Part shown: positions 2,802 through 60,548 of the stretch, piece by piece | Layout: each line of letters begins with the position of its first letter | Position numbering within the stretch: position 1 is the first letter of the stretch | Virus record (IMG/VR): IMGVR_UViG_3300027842_000121 | Origin: an uncultured virus (IMG/VR IMGVR_UViG_3300027842_000121) | Taxonomy: Duplodnaviria; Heunggongvirae; Uroviricota; Caudoviricetes | DNA length: 64,000 bases | Direction: 5' to 3' (one strand) | Translations under genes and position numbers: made by a program | The notes under the pieces: generated by a model | What the model was told of the DNA's origin: nothing | Databases searched by the model: none | What the model saw: the letters and a program-made list of their open reading frames with translations, nothing else

Positions 2802-4399
2802 CACTGCCACCTAACGCCGTATTTTACGCGTCTGCGGTCAGCCACATCGCCAACCATCTTAAGTCCTGCTGCAATCGTATTGACGTGTTTCTTAAGTAAC
2901 AGTCCAAGTCTGCGAGCATCGATCTGACCCATGCTCCCCCTTTTTGCGCAAAACGAAAGGAGAAGATCGTACATTTTGGGATGTTTTAACTTATCATTAT
3001 AGTCCTTCTCGCTCACCATGTCAACGATATCGGCTGCGGTCCAGACCTCTGATGTTCCTAATGCCTCTGCCCAAGCTGTGAATAGTTCATATCTATCTTG
3101 TCTCACCGGGTCAACGGCTCTCGCCGTTGCCATGCTGTCGACCGGATCGGCATATCCGAGCCACACAAGCGGCTGACGGACGAAATGACACCACCCTTCG
3201 TAGCTGCCGAGGGGCGCCAAATCGCCTTTTGGGGCTCCCGCGAGCACGTATGCGCGTGCGATCGTCAGGCATGCGGCCACATACAAACCGCGATTTTCCC
3301 TTACCTCTTTTAACGGATTGCGCGAGAAAACCCGGTTCTCGGGATTCTCGGTGTTTGCGTCCATCGAACAAATCAGCGTGCGCCTTACAAGATCATCCAC
3401 AACACTCGCATTATTTCCATTGGCGAATACTGTGACTGCATTTGATATGATCGGCAGGTCTGACGTGCCTAATATTCGAGGCTTCAATAATGGTCTTTCG
3501 GTTATTTGGCACAGGAAGTCTCCTGACAGCGCCTCGCTGCAGTTGTCGAGGCAGACGATGGGTGATCCTGCGATGATCGAGCCGGCGAGCCGTTTTTCGG
3601 TTTCTGCCGGATCGTCGGGTGCGACGGCAATTGCCGGCGCTCGCTCACCTGTTGCGATGACCGATGCCACGTCTGCCAGGTAGGATTTGCCGGTCCCGGC
3701 AAGCGGCGCCGTCACCAGGTGCATCGGCGCCACTTCCATCGCGGTGCGCAGCACGGCCGTCATGATCATCGAGAGGCCGACCGAGCGGGAGGCTTCGTCG
3801 GAGAACGGGAATTCGCTCAAGAGGTCGAGCAGCAACGCCCCTGCCGCATCCGCCTCGTCAAAGCTCGGGTCATCGTGGAAACGGGTCGGCAGCTGCACGC
3901 CGGAGCGCAGCACCATGCCGGTTTCCTCGTCATAGCCAGGCTCGGTCAAAAGGGTTCCCGACGCGCGTATCGTCGGACAGGCGGCGATGCCGCGCAGGGT
4001 CGGGAATTCCCAGGCTCCGACCATGTCGAGGATCATGGCGACAACGCTCTGCGGCGGGGCGCAGGGTGCTGTCGCATGCCCGCCCTTGCCGCTGCCGATT
4101 TTCTGCCAGTGCGCGACCTCCCCGAGCAGGCGTTCGAGGATCGGGCGGGTAACCTCGACGATGCCCGGTGTCGTGATCGCAGCACCGTTCATTGCGCGCG
4201 AGCGGATGCCGGCGACGCGCACGAGCGTATGGCTGCGCTGGTAGATTTCCGCTTTGGCCTCGAGGAGTGCGGCCATGGCGGCGTCGACCGCGGCGTTGCG
4301 CGGGCCCGGCTGCACCGTGATCACGGGCTTGCCGTCCTTGGCCGCCCATCCCGGCAGCTCGACGATCTCGCCCTTCACCGGTAGACCCTCGCAATCCAA
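2801..4399 (-). CDS. primase-associated P-loop NTPase/helicase-like replication protein
   Basis: Walker A APLAGTGKS, Walker B-like IVCLDN, ANGNN and DDLVRR motifs; in operon with Prim-Pol. Confidence 0.75.
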   Translation of the reverse strand: MDCEGLPVKGEIVELPGWAAKDGKPVITVQPGPRNAAVDAAMAALLEAKAEIYQRSHTLVRVAGIRSRAMNGAAITTPGIVEVTRPILERLLGEVAHWQKIGSGKGGHATAPCAPPQSVVAMILDMVGAWEFPTLRGIAACPTIRASGTLLTEPGYDEETGMVLRSGVQLPTRFHDDPSFDEADAAGALLLDLLSEFPFSDEASRSVGLSMIMTAVLRTAMEVAPMHLVTAPLAGTGKSYLADVASVIATGERAPAIAVAPDDPAETEKRLAGSIIAGSPIVCLDNCSEALSGDFLCQITERPLLKPRILGTSDLPIISNAVTVFANGNNASVVDDLVRRTLICSMDANTENPENRVFSRNPLKEVRENRGLYVAACLTIARAYVLAGAPKGDLAPLGSYEGWCHFVRQPLVWLGYADPVDSMATARAVDPVRQDRYELFTAWAEALGTSEVWTAADIVDMVSEKDYNDKLKHPKMYDLLLSFCAKRGSMGQIDARRLGLLLKKHVNTIAAGLKMVGDVADRRRVKYGVRWQ

Positions 4400-4986
4400 G
4401 TAGATATTTCAATTGGAATCTTGGATATTTTTGCGGTCCACTCCTTGCGTTCGGCTGATTTTGATGACGCGGACCTGCCGTTGCCGCCATTCTGGTAAAA
4501 CCAGGCCCTTCCTGCCCCGGTGCCCTTCCTGACGCCGTGACCATCCGGCATTAATGCCGGGACAGACCCCCAAAAAAAGTATGGTCCGTAATTCCATCGG
4601 GCTCGACCGACCCACTTCTGCGCGCCGCGCACATTCTCGACCACCAGCGGAATGTGCCGGCCGGCCGCCTCGCACGCTTCGCGCTGAATGCGGAAGCACG
4701 CCTCGAATAGCGTGTTGTTGGGGGGCGGCAGCTCTTTTGCCCGCTTCCATGGCATTGCGCGGTAGCTGTAGGCCTGGCAGGGCGGCGAGGCGACGATCAG
4801 CCGGGCGTCGCGGAACTGCGCGCCGTGAAGCGTCAGAACGTCTTGCAGCACGAGCTGCGCCGGGTAGCGCTCGCCGCCGTATTCGTGCCTCTCGATGTCG
4901 AATCCTACGACATCCCAGCCTTCTGCGAGCAGCCCTGCCGTCCAGCCGCCGACCCCACAGAAAAGGTCGATGGCAAGCGGCCTCAC
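4375..4986 (-). CDS. short C5 DNA cytosine methyltransferase
   Basis: Motif I DLFCGVGG, motif IV SPPCQAYS, motif VI VVENV. Confidence 0.85.
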   Translation of the reverse strand: MRPLAIDLFCGVGGWTAGLLAEGWDVVGFDIERHEYGGERYPAQLVLQDVLTLHGAQFRDARLIVASPPCQAYSYRAMPWKRAKELPPPNNTLFEACFRIQREACEAAGRHIPLVVENVRGAQKWVGRARWNYGPYFFWGSVPALMPDGHGVRKGTGAGRAWFYQNGGNGRSASSKSAERKEWTAKISKIPIEISTWIARVYR

Positions 4987-8438: not shown

Positions 8439-8552
8439 TCCTCCTACGTGGGTGCCCGGCCGGCGTGAAGCCCCGGCTGCAAAGCGCTGATGCAGCTTCC
8501 GGCATTCGCCAAGGCCACCGGGCACCCAGCCGCACCATACCCCAGCCCCGGC

Positions 8553-8580
8553 CGTGTTGCAACACGAAAATGTGTTGACA
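8553..8580. promoter_or_regulatory. divergent promoter region with 14-bp palindrome and -35 hexamer
   Basis: CGTGTTGCAACACG at 8553-8566 and TTGACA at 8575-8580, in the gap between leftward and rightward blocks. Confidence 0.55.
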
Positions 8581-8630
8581 TGAGGTGCGGGCGGCGGGTA
8601 GGGTGGCGACAGATGGGAGCGGAGGGCGCG

Positions 8631-9263
8631 ATGACGACGGTAACGATTGAGCAGATGGTGGAGCGGTGGAGCGACCCGAATGCGCGTCCGCCATTCAAGG
8701 GCGCGCTGATCGACGACGACGGCTGCTGCTGCGCGCAGGGCGACGTGCTCCGGCAGTGTGGCTGGAGCGACGAGCGGCTGCGCTCTGCCGAGCAGCGCGA
8801 GGCGGACAGATCCGTGGCGCAAGCCCTGGGCATCAGCCTAACGCAAGCGATTCTGCTGGGTGTTATCAATGATCAGCAAGATGGCTGTCCGCAGGATGTG
8901 TTGGCACATCCCGAGCGCGTGCTGGGCAACCAGGCGCCGCGTATTCTGGCTCTCTGGCGTCGCTTTGACGCGATGACGCCGCAGCAGTGGGATGCTGCTA
9001 TGGCTGCCGCCGGGGCTGCCGCCGCGGCCGCCGCCGCGGCTGCCGCTTGGGCTGCCGCTCGGGCTGCCGCCGGGGCTGCCGCTCGGGCTGCCGCCGGGAC
9101 TGCCGCCGCGGCTGCCGCTCGGACTGCCGCTCGGGCTGCCGCCGGGGCTGCCGCTTGGGCTGCCGCTAATGCCACAAACGAGGTCCAGGGCGCCGAACGC
9201 CTGCAATCATTCTTCTTCCTCCCGTTATTCGGGATCAATCACCCCAGCGAGTTCGACGGCTAA
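8631..9263 (+). CDS. Ala-rich repeat phage protein
   Basis: GGAGG at 8621, ATG at 8631; AAAW/AAAR/AAAG repeats. Confidence 0.7.
   Translation: MTTVTIEQMVERWSDPNARPPFKGALIDDDGCCCAQGDVLRQCGWSDERLRSAEQREADRSVAQALGISLTQAILLGVINDQQDGCPQDVLAHPERVLGNQAPRILALWRRFDAMTPQQWDAAMAAAGAAAAAAAAAAAWAAARAAAGAAARAAAGTAAAAAARTAARAAAGAAAWAAANATNEVQGAERLQSFFFLPLFGINHPSEFDG
9003..9167 (+). repeat. 12-nt coding tandem repeat GCTGCCGCY-NNN
   Basis: Units such as GCTGCCGCTCGG, GCTGCCGCCGGG, GCTGCCGCTTGG. Confidence 0.85.
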
Positions 9264-9278
9264 CGGGCGGAGGATGCG

Positions 9279-9548
9279 GTGATGAGCGAGCGTCAATCCT
9301 GGGTTGTTTGGGGTCGCAAGATTGGGACCGGAACCGGTTGGGATCAAGCCGACACCTTTGTAATGCAGCTATACGACTTCGAGGGTGGCGAAGGATATAC
9401 GGGGCCATGTGGGCCATGCGTTATCTTCGACTTCGAGCGCGGACGGATTGAGACGGTTGGCGGTGACGGAGAATTAACGGACTCGGTCGACCTGATAGGT
9501 GCAGTTTCAGGCGCTCCGCGTGAATCCGACTCACACAAGGAGGGGTAA
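9279..9548 (+). CDS. hypothetical protein
   Basis: GGAGG upstream; fits the operon. Confidence 0.55.
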   Translation: MMSERQSWVVWGRKIGTGTGWDQADTFVMQLYDFEGGEGYTGPCGPCVIFDFERGRIETVGGDGELTDSVDLIGAVSGAPRESDSHKEG

Positions 9549-9560
9549 GGCGTTAGCATC

Positions 9561-9830
9561 ATGCACGACCGAACCGCCTACGCCGCCGAGACCGAGCTGA
9601 TGAACGGCTGCATGCAGGTTCTGACCGGCAAGAGCCTTGGGGAGATTGCGGCGGCGGTGGGCGTCGATCGCTCGACCCTGACCGCTTGGCGCACCGGCGA
9701 CAGCCGCGCCCTGCCCGAGCGCTGGCAGCGCATCGCTGAATTGCTGATGCTGGTGCAGGGCGAGGCTGACGTGCTGCTGGATCGGATCGCCGAAATGTTT
9801 CCGCGTCTGGATATAGATGACCCCCGCTGA
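9561..9830 (+). CDS. helix-turn-helix transcriptional regulator
   Basis: SLGEIAAAVGVDRSTLTAWRTG. Confidence 0.8.
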   Translation: MHDRTAYAAETELMNGCMQVLTGKSLGEIAAAVGVDRSTLTAWRTGDSRALPERWQRIAELLMLVQGEADVLLDRIAEMFPRLDIDDPR

Positions 9831-10020
9831 CCTGCACTTTTTGCTGGACCGGCTGGGCTGGTCGAAGACCACGCTTGCCGCCCGTCTCGGCGTCAGCCGC
9901 AGCCAGCTTTACAACTGGCTCGACGGCCGGGACCGCCAGCGCGGGCTGCCGATCGAGCAGCTGCCGGCGGGTGCGGTCGAGAGGATCGAACGACTGACCA
10001 AAGAGGAGTTCGGGGAATGA
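9817..10020 (+). CDS. XRE/Cro-like helix-turn-helix protein
   Basis: LGWSKTTLAARLGVSRSQLYNWLDG. Confidence 0.8.
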   Translation: MTPADLHFLLDRLGWSKTTLAARLGVSRSQLYNWLDGRDRQRGLPIEQLPAGAVERIERLTKEEFGE

Positions 10021-10190
10021 CCATCAAAGAGCTTCGCGTTTGGCTATCCGAAGAAATCGAGCAGGCGGCAGAGAATGCCGCTCGAAGCGCAAGGGTGGCC
10101 CTGAACTCATATGGTTCCGGCTACGACACAGGTTGGCGAGATGCCCTTGAACGTGTGGTGCTTAGAATTGACGACGAGCTGGACACTTAG
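10017..10190 (+). CDS. hypothetical 57-aa protein (below the ORF-track cutoff)
   Basis: ATGA overlap with the previous gene; reads MTIKELRVWL...IDDELDT-stop. Confidence 0.55.
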   Translation: MTIKELRVWLSEEIEQAAENAARSARVALNSYGSGYDTGWRDALERVVLRIDDELDT

Positions 10191-10348
10191 CTTCAGGAGC
10201 TCCGCGGTGGGCTCCGGGAGGGCGCGGCGCCTTCGGGAGCTGCGTTAGTGGCGTTTCCTCCAAACTTGGGCCTGGTCGCGGCGTAGCGACCCTCGGCCGG
10301 GCTCATTTTGGGGATGCGAAAACCTTGGGATGATGGGGATAACGGAAA

Positions 10349-11041
10349 ATGTCTGATACAGGTGTAATCGAAAGGGCAGTAAGGACCAAGGGCGGCCGCA
10401 AACCGCCCCCGGAAATCGCGGCCGAACCGCCCCAGCGCGAGGTTGTAATTGCCCCGCCGAAGTTCGAGCGGGCGGTGATCACGATCCAAGGCGATGCGCC
10501 CTATTGCCAGCACAAGTTTTCTGCCAAAGCGCGGCAGATGATCATCGAGACCCAGATGGCGGGCTCGGTCAGCCGCAAGGGCAAGAAGCGTGAGCCGCGG
10601 GATTTCGACGCGGATTACCGTGGCGCGATGCACGTCTCGCGCGAGGGCTGGGTGGGTATTCCCTGCGCGTCGTTTCGCAATGCGATGATCAGCGCCTGCC
10701 GGCTCGCAGGCTTTGTGATGACGCGGGCAAAGCTGAGCCTGTTTGTCGAGCCTGACGGGTTTGACGCAGATGACGGCACGCCGCTGACCAGGATCATCGG
10801 GGAACCTGTGCAGAACATCAGCTATGTGCGAAATGAAACCGGCGTTGTCGATATTCGCTGCCGGCCATTGTGGGAACAGTGGTCTGCCGAGGTCTCGTTG
10901 AAATGGGACGCGGACCAATTCAGCGCAGCCGATGTTGTCAATCTGTTGTCGCGAGCCGGCGTGCAGGTGGGGATTGGCGAGGGGCGCCCCGACTCGCCGC
11001 GAGCCAACGGCGTTGGCTGGGGGACATTTGTGCTGTTGTAA
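10349..11041 (+). CDS. stand-alone RAMP/Cas7-like protein
   Basis: First strand ITIQGDAP, IPCASFRNAM (compare RAMP IPgSslKGal), terminal Gly-rich loop GVQVGIGEGRP...GWGTF; array starts 3 nt after the stop. Confidence 0.7.
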   Translation: MSDTGVIERAVRTKGGRKPPPEIAAEPPQREVVIAPPKFERAVITIQGDAPYCQHKFSAKARQMIIETQMAGSVSRKGKKREPRDFDADYRGAMHVSREGWVGIPCASFRNAMISACRLAGFVMTRAKLSLFVEPDGFDADDGTPLTRIIGEPVQNISYVRNETGVVDIRCRPLWEQWSAEVSLKWDADQFSAADVVNLLSRAGVQVGIGEGRPDSPRANGVGWGTFVLL

Positions 11042-11043
11042 AG

Positions 11044-11431
11044 GGCTGGATGGACGAGACGGGGCAGGGCCAGAAGGGGCATGACAGGCTTGACGGGGCT
11101 AGATGCGGCCGGACGTGTCTCGACACGATGAGGCAAGGCAGGCCCGGCCTGGCCTGACTAGACGAGACAGGGTAAGGCATGGCAGGCAGGGCCTGTCGTG
11201 GCGAGATGTGACGGGGCCATGCAGGGCAGGCGCGTCGGGCCTTGGCTTGGCGCGACGAGACGGGGATAGGCAGGCCCGACGAGGCGTGGCGGGGCGTCAT
11301 GAGGCTGGACAGGACGGGGCAGGCATGACCAGACGAGGCCTGGCCGGACATGACAGGACACGACGAGACGTGCCCTGGCAGGACCGACATGACAAGGACG
11401 CGACGAGACGCGGTTCGACGGGACCAGACCA
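11044..11431 (+). repeat. pentamer array 1: G(G/A)C-NN units punctuated by GGCA; probable guide-RNA precursor
   Basis: 4-nt punctuation at 11083, 11137, 11181, 11225, 11269, 11318, 11377 gives spacings 54, 44, 44, 44, 49, 59, all 4+5n. Confidence 0.9.
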
Positions 11432-11449
11432 GAAATCAGGAGGAAGGGA

Positions 11450-11899
11450 ATGACGATCGCAAGCGAGTTGCTGGATCTTGAGGATGAGGACGGATTGATT
11501 GATCCGACCACTGTAGTCGATTGGGCGCGAGATAATCCCGCAAGTGCCTTGCACGGCGCAATTGAATGGGATGACGCCATAGCGGCGCACGCGCATAGGT
11601 TGTGGCAAGTGAGGAGGCTGGTTGCGATCCATATCGTGACCGATGACGGTCAGCGGCAGCGCATCTCGCTCCTGCGCGACCGCAAGAGCGGCGGCGGCTA
11701 TCGCGACGTATCCTCGGTGATGCGCAATGACGAGCTGCGCGCCGAGGCGTTGGCGGAAGCGCTTGCCGAATTGGAGCGCTGGCAGGCTCGCTATCAGCAT
11801 CTGCGCGAGTTGGCCGATGTGTTCGAGAGCACGGCTCGGGTGCGCGCTCACGTGCCGCGCCGTGCTCGCGCGCGCGAGTCTGTACAGCCGGCGGCGTAA
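11450..11899 (+). CDS. accessory protein of unknown function between the two arrays
   Basis: AGGAGG at 11438-11443; 149 aa with VVDWARD..SALH..EWDD. Confidence 0.8.
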   Translation: MTIASELLDLEDEDGLIDPTTVVDWARDNPASALHGAIEWDDAIAAHAHRLWQVRRLVAIHIVTDDGQRQRISLLRDRKSGGGYRDVSSVMRNDELRAEALAEALAELERWQARYQHLRELADVFESTARVRAHVPRRARARESVQPAA

Positions 11900-11902
11900 A
11901 AT

Positions 11903-12009
11903 GACAGGCACGATGTGCCCGGACGAGTCTTGGCGAGGCCGGGCGCGGCGAGGCAGGTGGGACATGGCATGCCCAGATCAGACACGACCAGACACGGCAG
12001 GCCCGGATT
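11903..12009 (+). repeat. pentamer array 2, same grammar
   Basis: Punctuation at 11903 (GACA), 11952 and 11996 (GGCA); spacings 49 and 44. Confidence 0.85.
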
Positions 12010-12157
12010 TCCAGGGGATAGGGGCGCTGTGCGGCCGAGGAAGGTGGCAACCGCCATCCGCCCTTCCTCGGCAGATCGCGTGCGGTGCACGGCGGCAGGC
12101 TCGCGGCGTCCCCAAACGCGGGCTTGCCGCCACCCTATAAATAATGAGGAGATTGAC

Positions 12158-12514
12158 GTGATTTACTGGCCCGACGAACTGCCAGACTCGACCTTCACCG
12201 TCGACCCGCTTCCGATCTCTACAAACATGCTTTACCGCAGCGGCCCGCGCTTCAAAACGCAGGACTACAAGATCTGGATCGAGCGGGCGGGCTGGGAGAT
12301 CAGGGCGCAGCGGCCAGAGAAGTTACAGAGGGCGGCGCTCGCGGCGAGGATGGATCTGCCGTTCTCTCGCAAACGCGATATCGACAACATCAAGCCGATC
12401 CTTGACCTGACCAAATCGCTCGGGATCATACCTGACGACCGCTGGGTTGACCTGTTGCTGCTGCGCCGGGTGCCGGTGAGCGAGGCGCTGCGCGTCTCGA
12501 TCTGGAGACTGTGA
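12158..12514 (+). CDS. RusA-like Holliday junction resolvase
   Basis: PISTNMLY, RDIDNIKPILD, GIIPDDRWV; GAGGAG before GTG at 12158. Confidence 0.8.
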   Translation: MIYWPDELPDSTFTVDPLPISTNMLYRSGPRFKTQDYKIWIERAGWEIRAQRPEKLQRAALAARMDLPFSRKRDIDNIKPILDLTKSLGIIPDDRWVDLLLLRRVPVSEALRVSIWRL

Positions 12515-12744
12515 CGATGAGCCTTTGCACGACATGCTGGGGCAAGGGCGGCCGGTGGGTCAACGCCGTCCCGCCACCTTATGACTTCTCCTATCAATGG
12601 CAGCCATGCCCCAATTGCCACGCCGGCCGCCAGCACTGCTGCGATGGCGAGCAGGCGCAACTGGAGGAAGACTCATGTTCACCGACGACGACCTCGAACG
12701 CATCTACCTGCAGCTCACCCGAAGCGCGCGAAAAGACCTGCTAG
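12511..12744 (+). CDS. small Cys-rich (zinc-finger-like) protein
   Basis: CTTCWGKG ... CPNCHAG ... HCCDG. Confidence 0.5.
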   Translation: MTMSLCTTCWGKGGRWVNAVPPPYDFSYQWQPCPNCHAGRQHCCDGEQAQLEEDSCSPTTTSNASTCSSPEAREKTC

Positions 12745-35600: not shown

Positions 35601-37309
35601 GCCGAGCGTTCCATGCCCGGCATCACCATCTGCTCGCCCTGCTCGGTCAGCTCGGTAGCGGGCTCCCCGGCTCCTGCGGCAACTGGCCGAGGCGCTCCTG
35701 CGCCTGTTGCAGGCTCAGTGCCGACTCCCCCTGATCCAGCGCCTGCTTCCACATGCTCCTGATCTCGTCCGGCAATTCCGGGTTCTTCAACGCCGCCCTC
35801 GCCTTCGCCACCGATCTGAGCAAGGTAGTGTTGCCACCGCGCTTCCCCCTCGAACTGGTCTGCACGCTCCAGATCCTCCTCTGTTGCCGGTACTCCGCGA
35901 TAGAATTCGTCCGGCTCCCATGCATCGCCGCGCGCTTCGAACCACGCTCGCGTGCGCGCCTCGGCCTCGGCAAACGCCTGTTCATGCGCCTGCCCCATTG
36001 ACGCAATTTCGCGATCCCGCTCATCTTCCGACATGCGGTCGGCGATCGTGTCCCAGAACTGATCGCGAGACATTCCCGCCGGGTCGATCCCATGTTCCTG
36101 CGCCAGCCGATCCACCTCGGCGTTGCGCGCCATAGCGCCCTGAAAAGCCGCCACTCCCTGCGCATCAACCCCGGAATAACGAGGCCGCAAGTTGTGATCC
36201 TCAGCGACGGCATCGAGAAAGTCGTTGACCGAAGGGCGCTCGTCAGTCGGGAAATATCCGTCCTCCCATGCCTTCAAGGCAGCGTCATCGAGATTCATTC
36301 CGCTGCGATTGTTGATCAGCCCAGGCCTACCGCGCGGGCCGCCGATAGTCGTCCTGATGTCGCCGCCCGGATCTTTGACGCCGCCGTTGCGCACAATCCA
36401 CGAATTCAGCCGCTGCGGCTCGGGCGGAACGCGCTCGGCAACCTGATTTGGGCCGGTATAGCGGTCGGGCAGATCGGTGCCGCGCGAGACAATCGATTGC
36501 GCGACACCGGGATCGCTTGCCGCATCATGCGCCACCTCGGAAGGATGGACGCCATTCTGTGAATAAAGCTCCAGAAGCTTGCGTTGCACGCTCGGCGCCG
36601 CATCCTCGCCGGCAATCGCCTTTGCGGTGCTGCCGAAATCTTCAGCCTCAGGCAGCGTGCCGATCGGTACGTCTATCGCATGCCCGGCGGCGTCGACCTC
36701 GGAACGCGCCAGGATCGACGCAATCGTCGGTCGCGCCAGATCGAGCAAGCCGCCGGCCAGGGCGCCGGGAGGACCAAGCCCGGTCAATGTCGCAGCCAAC
36801 CCCGGATCGGTCGCAACCTGCAATCCGGTCTCTATCGCCTCTCCGGTCTTTGGGCCAATCTTGCGGGCGGCGCCGACAATGCCGCCCAAAGCGGCGCCCA
36901 GAAGCCGACGCAAGGCGTCAGCCGCAATCGCTACCGGCTTGTTGATTGCGTCGGTCAGAAGCCGGATCGGCCCTGGCATCCCTTGATCGGGATCGCTGAT
37001 CATCCCGACACTGCGCATCCAGGACAGCTCATCCGAACCCAAGGGCTCGGAACCAAATCCCGCCTTCGCCCCCTCGCCAAACCCTTTGGCAAGATTGTCC
37101 AACACCGGCAGGTGTGTCGCAGAGTTCAGCCGCGCAAGAAAATTCGGGGGCGGAGTGGCCGGCGGCTGAACATTGCCGTCAAGATAGCGACTGATCTCGT
37201 CATCGTTAAAGCCGGCAGTATTCATCCGCTGGCGAAATCCGGTCGACCAGTTGCCGATCTCCTCGTCGGAAAACCCCGCGGCCTTGAACCGCGAAATCAG
37301 GTCAGGCAT
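32630..37309 (-). CDS. large internal virion/ejection protein with LPD38-like C-terminal domain
   Basis: 1559 aa; YHEIPQWQRD..W..RIPKP..G, ILLENYIRGWSG; T7 gp16-equivalent position. Confidence 0.75.
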   Translation of the reverse strand: MPDLISRFKAAGFSDEEIGNWSTGFRQRMNTAGFNDDEISRYLDGNVQPPATPPPNFLARLNSATHLPVLDNLAKGFGEGAKAGFGSEPLGSDELSWMRSVGMISDPDQGMPGPIRLLTDAINKPVAIAADALRRLLGAALGGIVGAARKIGPKTGEAIETGLQVATDPGLAATLTGLGPPGALAGGLLDLARPTIASILARSEVDAAGHAIDVPIGTLPEAEDFGSTAKAIAGEDAAPSVQRKLLELYSQNGVHPSEVAHDAASDPGVAQSIVSRGTDLPDRYTGPNQVAERVPPEPQRLNSWIVRNGGVKDPGGDIRTTIGGPRGRPGLINNRSGMNLDDAALKAWEDGYFPTDERPSVNDFLDAVAEDHNLRPRYSGVDAQGVAAFQGAMARNAEVDRLAQEHGIDPAGMSRDQFWDTIADRMSEDERDREIASMGQAHEQAFAEAEARTRAWFEARGDAWEPDEFYRGVPATEEDLERADQFEGEARWQHYLAQIGGEGEGGVEEPGIAGRDQEHVEAGAGSGGVGTEPATGAGAPRPVAAGAGEPATELTEQGEQMVMPGMERSAVQAMRAREAEGGGMIRAAVPQLEPGGIFQRPETPQNELEFGPETGAISWGKKPPPAPGSFEEAQDSILSKLSIGEPGPRRPMTLSRMYTNIFEKLYPISEVTPPGTPTFRNPYRLTRLLAGLAGKIDHFLVRGTYDFNTYKINGASLQDVLDPVKDDLDGFRAFGAAARGLELEARDITTGLDSAAMRRVVREGLNKYEPVLTGLVEYQNRVAAYLRDSGVLSRDGYDVMTEANRLYVPFQRVMGDGDGFHGAGQTLQASNPIKRIAGSEREIVDPIESIIRNTASMITMAERNAAGTKLIDMLTAAGDIGFGERQPIKALELPPDPALDAALRDFLSRNGIDRSEGLLDFLHSAASQPENRGTISIFRDGTRHTYQVDPELARAWKGLDAQTAGAFEQLMRPFARTLRAGAVLTPDFAMRHTIRDYLYAAVTSPGLFSPADMARGFMGLISKDEPYWRWVQGGGANISMVTVDRRYLQEDIARLTQQTGLVTRMMNTVADPNAGWLTKGGAVVGLPFKVVGKYVLHPLQVLTELAENASHLGAYIKAERGMEEAGLEIGKPEIQEAAFASRDVAVDAARIGAKTRAYNMITAFANITLQDTDRVARAFYNNPARTSIAVGGGIVLPSALLWWAQHDDPRYHEIPQWQRDLAWIVLTNKWDDAGPANQFGPPAPGSAYRVVGDRLQINNGAIFRIPKPWGMGVVFGSGTERALEAFAAHNPEAFQHWSQSIFGVVVPQFVPTAGAPILNQWTNRDTFTNRTLVPDRMEKWLPEYQYTPYTTETTKALGKIIGAFPGVRGASISPDSPVAGGVARALTSPILLENYIRGWSGNLGMYALATADAALRKSGVLPDPPKPTAALADIPVVRAFIVRYPSATTQSIQDFEDTYARNDVFYQTWQAKAKEGDADAAARISAMGGPQMFVRLDGIKKALTEHNKLIQDIYRDPTSSPSDKRQLIDTLYFRMIELGQAGKAAMTQINQSLGEPPKP

Positions 37310-60086: not shown

Positions 60087-60548
60087 TCAGGCCTGCGCCG
60101 TCGCAACATCCTCTTTCGGGCTGCGCCCGGCACGCTCGTTCCAGCCCGCCATCCAGCCCTGCTGCCACTCCTCACGCTCCACAGTCGTTGGCACATAGGG
60201 GTTGCTCGACGCCGGATCGCCATTCATCGCCGCTCGATGCCCGGCATCATATTCCAGGCGGGCGGACGGCTTGCGCTTCTTCGGAAGCTTCATCCGCAGC
60301 ATCGCCGCCTCACCCAAGGGCGTGTCGGCCAGCATCCCAAGCTCTCGCCGGTAGCCGTCCATGGCCGCCTCTTCTGCAGCCACCGTGTCCACATCCCGCT
60401 TGCGCTCGCGGATCAGCCGGCGCAGCAGCTTCGGGTCGAAGCCGTAGGCCTTCGCCTCGATGTAAACTTCCTTGATGTCTTCGACGATCCCGGCCCGATC
60501 GCCCTCCAACAGCTCGATGCGATCGACGATCGCTTTCAGATCCATCAC
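60087..60548 (-). CDS. GapR (DUF2312)-like DNA-binding domain fused to an Rmf-like domain
   Basis: LKAIVDRIE.LE..DIKEVY.EAK..GFD; C-terminal YDAG..A..G..NPY..W..GW..G. Confidence 0.8.
   Translation of the reverse strand: MMDLKAIVDRIELLEGDRAGIVEDIKEVYIEAKAYGFDPKLLRRLIRERKRDVDTVAAEEAAMDGYRRELGMLADTPLGEAAMLRMKLPKKRKPSARLEYDAGHRAAMNGDPASSNPYVPTTVEREEWQQGWMAGWNERAGRSPKEDVATAQA

Follow-up and report, generated by a model that had tools for sequence, protein, structure and literature searches.

VIPR systems were described in 2026, and the published experiments concern only type II systems of E. coli and Pseudomonas. As set out in the first preprint (10.64898/2026.04.26.720920), they are encoded by phages and consist of a RAMP-like protein (Vipr), an accessory vap gene and vrRNAs built of 9-16 GGY/NN pentamers, with 'a related consensus' allowed in place of the GGY triplet. 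The NN bases of the vrRNA pair with dsDNA and one target base, usually the one at the codon wobble position, is skipped per unit; either strand can be bound, no PAM is needed and the outcome is transcriptional repression. The natural targets named there are satellites, prophage regulators and other VIPR systems, and seven types are distinguished, some with 'staggered arrays' in which, by the legend of fig. S18, the vrRNAs overlap by 1 nt.

The best studied example in these sources is SUSP1, in which mutations of GGY abolish silencing and the second G is specifically recognised (10.64898/2026.04.26.720920; 10.64898/2026.04.26.720927). In the structure (10.64898/2026.04.26.720927) each repeat is bound by a single Vipr protomer, G1, G2 and Y3 sit in specific pockets, and the R-loop is gapped. 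A further preprint (10.64898/2026.10.15.759431) states that SUSP1 vrRNA4 is directed, in the excision recombinase of a satellite, to the strand immediately preceding the catalytic serine, that 'solo' vrRNAs of satellites redirect VIPR to host repeats and that a vrRNA footprint of 6 units occurs.

The window analysed here, that is the whole stretch of 64,000 nucleotides from an uncultured virus (IMG/VR IMGVR_UViG_3300027842_000121), represents nearly the whole of a phage of ~65 kb, the longest contig with its vipr-like protein (P0001) being 65,351 bases long. The source is a GC-rich, podovirus-like environmental phage. Virion and lysis domains encoded in the window comprise a T7-like internal virion protein, a head-tail connector, a GP7 capsid protein and a GH25 lysin, while those of replication and recombination are Prim-Pol, a PD-(D/E)XK exonuclease and a RusA-like protein, next to a GapR-like protein. 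The GapR-like domain is presumably a hint of an alphaproteobacterial host; the DNA of the structural genes gave only short, weak matches in five genomes carrying related vipr genes, and the identity of the portal protein to those of phages of many hosts does not exceed 38%. The GapR-like DNA-binding domain lies in a 153-aa protein (60087-60548, - strand) together with a domain similar to ribosome modulation factor, an unusual combination.

The features around the arrays are the following:

10349..11041, + strand: vipr-like gene (P0001, 230 aa), with a RAMP-fold model
11043..11431, + strand: vrRNA array 1, ~390 nt, ~78 pentamers in about 8 blocks parted by 4-nt phase slips
11087..11136, + strand: block b1, 10 pentamers, sense decode FGYARVST
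11137..11140, + strand: 4-nt GGCA phase slip, block boundary
11141..11180, + strand: block b2, 8 pentamers, candidate guide unit
11181..11184, + strand: 4-nt GGCA phase slip, block boundary
11450..11899, + strand: vap-like accessory gene (P0002, 149 aa), conserved neighbour of vipr homologues
11903..12005, + strand: vrRNA array 2, two blocks of 9 pentamers

The order of genes on the + strand is HTH genes, vipr, array 1, vap-like gene, array 2 and RusA-like gene, the domain of the last beginning near 12158. Both arrays are intergenic, lying between P0001, P0002 and the RusA-like gene, and the region of array 1 is non-coding and poor in T. Scans of 9300-12700 for Rfam families, promoters and terminators gave nothing above chance, and no hammerhead was found there.

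P0001 is without a Pfam match and falls in PHROG 4652, whose function is unknown. An AF2 model of this protein, computed from an alignment of 19 sequences (P0001 and 18 homologues taken from 26 loci, with L008, L012, L014, L021 and L023-L026 left out), reached a pLDDT of 80.1 and a pTM of 0.72, while the model from the single sequence had a pLDDT of 42. Compared with the PDB by Foldseek, the model gave 41 matches at E<=1e-3, the best of them being Csm3/Cas7 of type III and type VII complexes; in VIA-align wide, which is independent of Foldseek, rows 1-28 were all CRISPR RAMPs, with 9g9a_G as the best (Z 10.7, rmsd 3.4, 133 aligned). By its model, P0001 is a protein of the Cas7/Csm3-type RAMP fold, and it is predicted to coat the guide RNA with one protomer per pentamer. 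A glycine-rich loop, which along with an RRM core and a thumb belongs to the RAMP fold of Vipr proteins, lies near its C-terminus and is invariant in all 19 aligned sequences.

The closest well-known relatives by modelled structure (Z up to the value given above) are therefore the Cas7/Csm3 proteins of Class 1 CRISPR complexes, with which the phage protein would share, by analogy, one protomer per repeat unit and a thumb that breaks the guide-target duplex periodically. The period differs, being 5 nt on the guide versus 3 nt on the target here and 6 versus 6 in CRISPR, and within the window we found no CRISPR repeats, cas genes or adaptation module.

The clade of P0001 is large, with 3917 clusters at 90% identity (E<=1e-5). 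Phage records searched by tblastn placed members of it in cyanophages and in phages of Mycobacterium and Gordonia, homologues being present in about 25 records of Mycobacterium phages and 5 of Gordonia phages. SUSP1 was not among the matches, which indicates that the protein of the window is distant from the studied type II. In viral contigs, the search with P0001 found 26 loci at 33-69% identity, and beside the homologue in 24 of them (GC 0.45-0.67) at least one 100-nt window has a period-5 power above 3.0. The combination of homologue and 5-periodic array is also present in Cyanophage Cy-LDV1 (L323, 2160-2340 and 2920-3040), Gordonia phage ODay (L324, 2086-2260) and Mycobacterium phage Donkeykong. 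In Donkeykong (NC_051648.1; L322 1001-1360, about 36880-37240 of the record) the periodic tract immediately precedes gp49, the vipr homologue, reaches a period-5 power of 8.7 and coincides with the annotated CDS gp48, a 'hypothetical protein', which is probably a vrRNA array mis-annotated as a gene.

The accessory gene follows the same pattern. Of 66 related loci searched by tblastn, 30 contain a homologue of P0002, which in 28 of them is directly downstream of the vipr homologue, while the other neighbouring genes in the window are not conserved in these 66 loci. From this pattern of conservation, the unit is a vipr-like gene, an array, the accessory gene and an array. P0002 itself belongs to PHROG 15946 (unknown function), has no Pfam and no PDB sequence match, and in the Atlas retrieves only viral hypothetical clusters.

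The 5-nt periodicity of the arrays is far beyond chance. In 100-nt windows the period-5 power is 3.4-6.8 across 11051-11351 and 11876-11926, whereas the mean for the window as a whole is 0.74 (sd 0.52), and outside the array tracts only four isolated windows exceed the mean by more than 4 sd. Related arrays, when printed in fives, consist mostly of GGC units and carry the same NGCA 4-mer punctuation; across the family the spacing of blocks is 5k+4, namely 54 nt (22 cases), 44 (16), 49 (15), 59 (8), 39 (4) and 64 (4). In 67 family blocks, a set from which L001 and the near-duplicate loci L008, L012, L021 and L024 were left out, the triplet is conserved and the variable dinucleotides hold 3.2-3.9 bits (about 3.7 of 4), while the last NN before the punctuation holds 2.5 bits, being AA in 25 blocks and AT in 20. 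The 5k+4 spacing seen in the window equals the published 1-nt overlap of vrRNAs, that is a 'staggered array' as the legend of fig. S18 has it (10.64898/2026.04.26.720920).

The window departs from the published systems in several respects. Its constant triplet has loosened to G-R-C: among the 81 units of the nine blocks that were parsed, GGC accounts for 29, GAC for 25 and other triplets for 27, whereas in the relatives GGC makes up 70%, GGT 10% and GAC 5% (11043-12005 of the window versus L002-L067). Since the second G is recognised in SUSP1 and about a third of the triplets here are GAC, the Vipr of the window would need a looser pocket, and by this comparison it may read the triplet differently from the SUSP1 protein. 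The blocks are, moreover, short (8-12 units) and tail-less, with a semi-conserved last unit and an NGCA slip where no separate 3' tail or pseudoknot was seen, and the Vipr clade is the distant one described above. As an observation on array 1, positions 11320-11407 hold a tandem duplication of 35 nt, that is seven pentamers, in 2.6 copies at 76% identity, which suggests duplication followed by divergence as the origin of new guide blocks.

The code itself could be evaluated on block b1. Its first 8 dinucleotides, searched in the register with one skipped base, gave 79 exact matches in 78 viral contigs; at 76 of these sites the reading is in frame and is followed by 100 or more open codons. The orientation is sense, the NN bases of the guide being those of the coding strand, and the sites encode FGYARVST..Q, mostly 2-5 codons after the start codon, in contigs with a GC content from 0.26 to 0.70. 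We ran Pfam on 30 of these matches and all 30 belonged to Resolvase (PF00239, the N-terminal domain), many of them with HTH_7 as well; FGYARVST is the catalytic-serine strand of serine recombinases. From this analysis it is evident that the VIPR decoding rule works at this locus for b1, with a codon-aligned target family, the serine recombinases of other mobile elements. Since the contigs span such a range of GC, the match is at the level of the protein motif, with the wobble bases left free, which suggests that the reach of b1 is family-wide rather than specific to a lineage. It should be added that b1 contains GAC, GAT and GTC units and is meaningful despite them, so that a relaxed triplet is no bar to a meaningful guide.

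The resemblance to SUSP1 vrRNA4 is close in one point, because b1 also reads the catalytic-serine strand, at codon positions 1-2, where escape mutations would hit the active site. It differs in Vipr clade, phage type and host range, and in that the motif lies at the extreme N-terminus of small enzymes of the resolvase/invertase type, in contigs of very different GC; b1 thereby extends the published 'active-site codon' targeting to another Vipr clade. Block b2 shows nothing comparable to this recombinase site.

For a conserved triplet with short spacers an explanation that involves no guide RNA should also be considered, namely that the array is a periodic platform for an oligomeric protein, either through TRAP-like RNA binding or as iterons of an origin or centromere. 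The sites of TRAP, the trp RNA-binding attenuation protein, are triplets with spacers of 2-3 nt, and the strict 5-nt period, conserved triplet and 2-nt spacers of the window resemble them; the locus also lies among genes of replication and recombination (Prim-Pol, PD-(D/E)XK exonuclease, RusA-like). However the spacers are informative here, since the dinucleotides of b1 spell a conserved protein motif with 79 matching sites, 76 in frame, as a mere spacer would not, and the adjacent protein is, by its model, a RAMP and not of the TRAP or Rep fold. The flanking replication genes, furthermore, are not conserved with the array, whereas the vipr and vap-like genes are. We therefore rejected the TRAP-like or iteron platform on the modelled RAMP fold of P0001, the VIPR literature and the in-frame matches of b1, and consider its chance negligible.

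Taken with the published descriptions, the window phage has the RAMP-fold protein, the tandem pentamer arrays, intergenic and flanking vipr, the hypervariable NN bases, the two-gene core with an adjacent vap-like accessory gene, natural targets in the one-skip, wobble-aligned code for b1, and no self-target in the window. On the last point, the window contains no site that matches any of its nine guides with two or fewer mismatched bases, and none of the guides, compared with the window, the related loci and the loci of the b1 targets, scored above shuffled controls except b1 itself. A guide resembling b1 or b2 was absent from the related arrays, where the best score was 9-10 of 16.

Block b2 is the neighbour of b1. 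The letters that the earlier note had listed are right: eight in-phase pentamers at 11141-11180 have as their NN bases CC CT CT TA GA AG AA AT, and the reverse complement, AT TT CT TC TA AG AG GG, is arithmetically correct as (I/M)-(F/L)-L-S-Y-(R/S)-(R/S)-G. The block is bounded on both sides by GGCA slips and is not free-standing but inside array 1. Its triplets are GGC four times, GAC three times and GGT once, so that seven of the eight are G-R-C. We read b2 as a guide block within a staggered array of VIPR vrRNAs in a podovirus-like phage, with a probability of roughly 0.85, and on the analogy with b1 and the published code it is very probably a guide RNA in which dinucleotides are read and one base is skipped per unit.

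The mechanism that we propose starts from what was directly established, which is the protein fold, the anatomy of the arrays, their joint conservation with the genes in relatives and the working code of b1, and borrows its steps from the preprints. The + strand operon, from the HTH genes to the RusA-like gene, would be transcribed, and the 4-nt phase slips would be where the array RNA is cut or delimited. Each pentamer would then be bound by one Vipr protomer, which hides the constant triplet and presents the two variable bases, and the resulting filament would pair with dsDNA in the register of two bases read and one skipped, by which transcription of the bound gene would be blocked.

As to what b2 addresses, the earlier note had proposed a TIR-domain protein of host defence (as in Thoeris, CBASS and others): b2, in antisense, would pair with the DNA for its start motif and repress it. 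The likeness is genuine as far as peptides go: eleven genes of TIR_2 from five genomes begin with [IV]F[IL]S[YH][SR].., for example RVFISHSSKD, DIFISYRRQD and RIFLSHSSAD, so that the start motif given in the earlier note is right at the peptide level. The conserved motif that the neighbouring b1 reads is N-terminal, 2-5 codons behind the start, and a target at the 5' end would fit this local pattern; that either strand can be targeted is stated in 10.64898/2026.04.26.720920. Among 3241 family units the core F-[IL]-S-[YH] was counted 3 times, each time antisense, where 0.97 would be expected, an excess that is suggestive at most before allowing for other recognisable motifs. The other two antisense F-I-S-[YH] cores in the family arrays are in L014 near 2844 and L034 near 3075, and the total of 3 is not significant. 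When family dinucleotides are drawn at random in window-sized sets, 3.6% of the draws contain F-[IL]-S-[YH] in one or the other orientation.

The decode itself leaves some latitude. The dinucleotide read as Y could equally be a stop codon (TAA/TAG), and in most of the database matches it is a stop. The first decoded residue, I/M, comes from the last NN, which is the semi-conserved position of the family blocks and for this reason may be a boundary signal rather than part of the guide, a point which argues against the TIR reading. With 8 dinucleotides, or possibly 7 if the last is a boundary, b2 is below the 9-16 repeats of vrRNAs of the SUSP1 type, although the published footprint of 6 units is smaller still.

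We searched for targets of b2 in three collections. In the viral contigs the pattern gave 11 exact matches (GC 0.37-0.56) and a re-ordered control gave 12; none of the 11 falls within a TIR gene or shares frame 0 with a long ORF, and wobble alignment, with both strands considered, is seen for only one. For scale, the corresponding yields were 79 for b1 and 2 for the b6 seed, all with 16-base patterns, and none for b5 with 18 bases. In metagenome contigs at least 118 loci were found, and of the 80 examined none is in a TIR gene, nor is any frame enriched among them. The longest open frame has at least 100 codons in 56 of these 80, distributed as +1 16, +2 13, -0 9, -1 8, -2 6 and +0 4, the frame of the TIR reading (+0) thus being the least used. 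Nine open frames of at least 60 codons in frame 0 at the examined loci belong to YidC (2), an outer-membrane barrel (1) or to no Pfam family (6), and none is a TIR. When the 11 viral and 80 metagenome loci are grouped, they form 65 singletons and 10 groups of 2-4 members, while b1 has a single family.

The third collection comprised 401 genomes belonging to the same class as G002, a genome of Bradyrhizobium in which a related vipr is present. Allowing one mismatch, b2 gave 18 matches and its backwards control 16, none with a TIR context; two of the 18 have an open frame of at least 80 codons in frame 0, neither with a Pfam family. The eleven real TIR_2 genes match b2 at only 7-10 of 16 bases at the start motif, partly because arginine is encoded by CGN and not AGR in GC-rich genomes. 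Read in sense and wobble-aligned, b2 just as readily matches a conserved motif of dephospho-CoA kinase in three contigs (GC 0.32-0.35); together with the YidC matches this illustrates how a degenerate decode of 8 residues hits motifs by chance in a very large collection.

These counts give no sign that matches of b2 are enriched in TIR genes over controls. Neither a TIR nor any other anti-defence target is mentioned in the accessible text of 10.64898/2026.04.26.720920 or 10.64898/2026.10.15.759431, and, by our reasoning, repression after entry would leave the defence protein that had already been made in place. We conclude that the likeness of b2 to TIR proteins exists at the peptide level only, and that repression of a TIR-domain defence gene by b2 is very unlikely. 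The result is a lack of support in the collections searched rather than a disproof. The earlier proposal of an RNA-guided anti-defence guide hence holds in its first half, as the reading by dinucleotides with one skipped base agrees with the published code and with b1, while its anti-defence half found no support; likewise the statement that either strand can be addressed agrees with the preprint, but b2 does not demonstrate it.

It could also be supposed that b2 is inactive or decaying, either a duplicated or drifted guide kept as filler of the array or a decoy without a cognate target. No target appeared in any of the searches run, b5 gave no exact match in viral contigs and the b6 seed only 2, and the tandem repeat at 11320-11407 implies that blocks arise by duplication and drift; b2 has, in addition, one GGT and three GAC units where the relatives mostly have GGC. 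The phase of the block, however, is perfect and both of its boundaries are kept, its proportion of G-R-C triplets is no worse than that of the meaningful b1 with its GAC, GAT and GTC, and searches for exact patterns miss targets with mismatches as well as hosts that have not been sampled. We regard decay as improbable, though a better candidate than a TIR target.

For b2 as a working guide block, the most likely target is a gene in some rival phage or other mobile element, one that the collections lack or that has diverged too far to be found by exact pattern. A variant in which the guides of the array are chosen for conserved protein motifs and not for one rival genome, and b2 in antisense addresses the TIR start motif in the host or in a resident prophage, has in our judgement very little chance of being correct; if true, b2 at a TIR gene would be the first VIPR guide turned against host immunity.

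The locus presents the VIPR code in a setting very different from the published ones, a GC-rich, podovirus-like environmental phage, and the clade of its Vipr, with its 3917 clusters, extends to cultured phages of Mycobacterium, Gordonia and cyanobacteria. To the published description it adds a relaxed constant triplet, staggered blocks without tails and a guide that converges on the catalytic-serine strand of serine recombinases. The case of b2 also calls for caution, as a decode of 8 dinucleotides resembles known motifs fairly easily, and only a located, wobble-aligned target separates a real guide assignment from coincidence.

Two further observations concern the same phage. Upstream of the vipr-like gene, at 9002-9167, a 12-nt tandem repeat of 13.8 copies (also scored with period 36) is overlapped by open frames on both strands, Ala-rich on the + strand (8490-9263) and Gly/Ser/Pro-rich on the - strand (8838-9206). 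At 4375-4986 (- strand) an ORF of 203 aa resembles just the N-terminal third of a C-5 cytosine DNA methylase (Pfam positions 4-113 of 324), and from this partial similarity it may be a short or split methylase.
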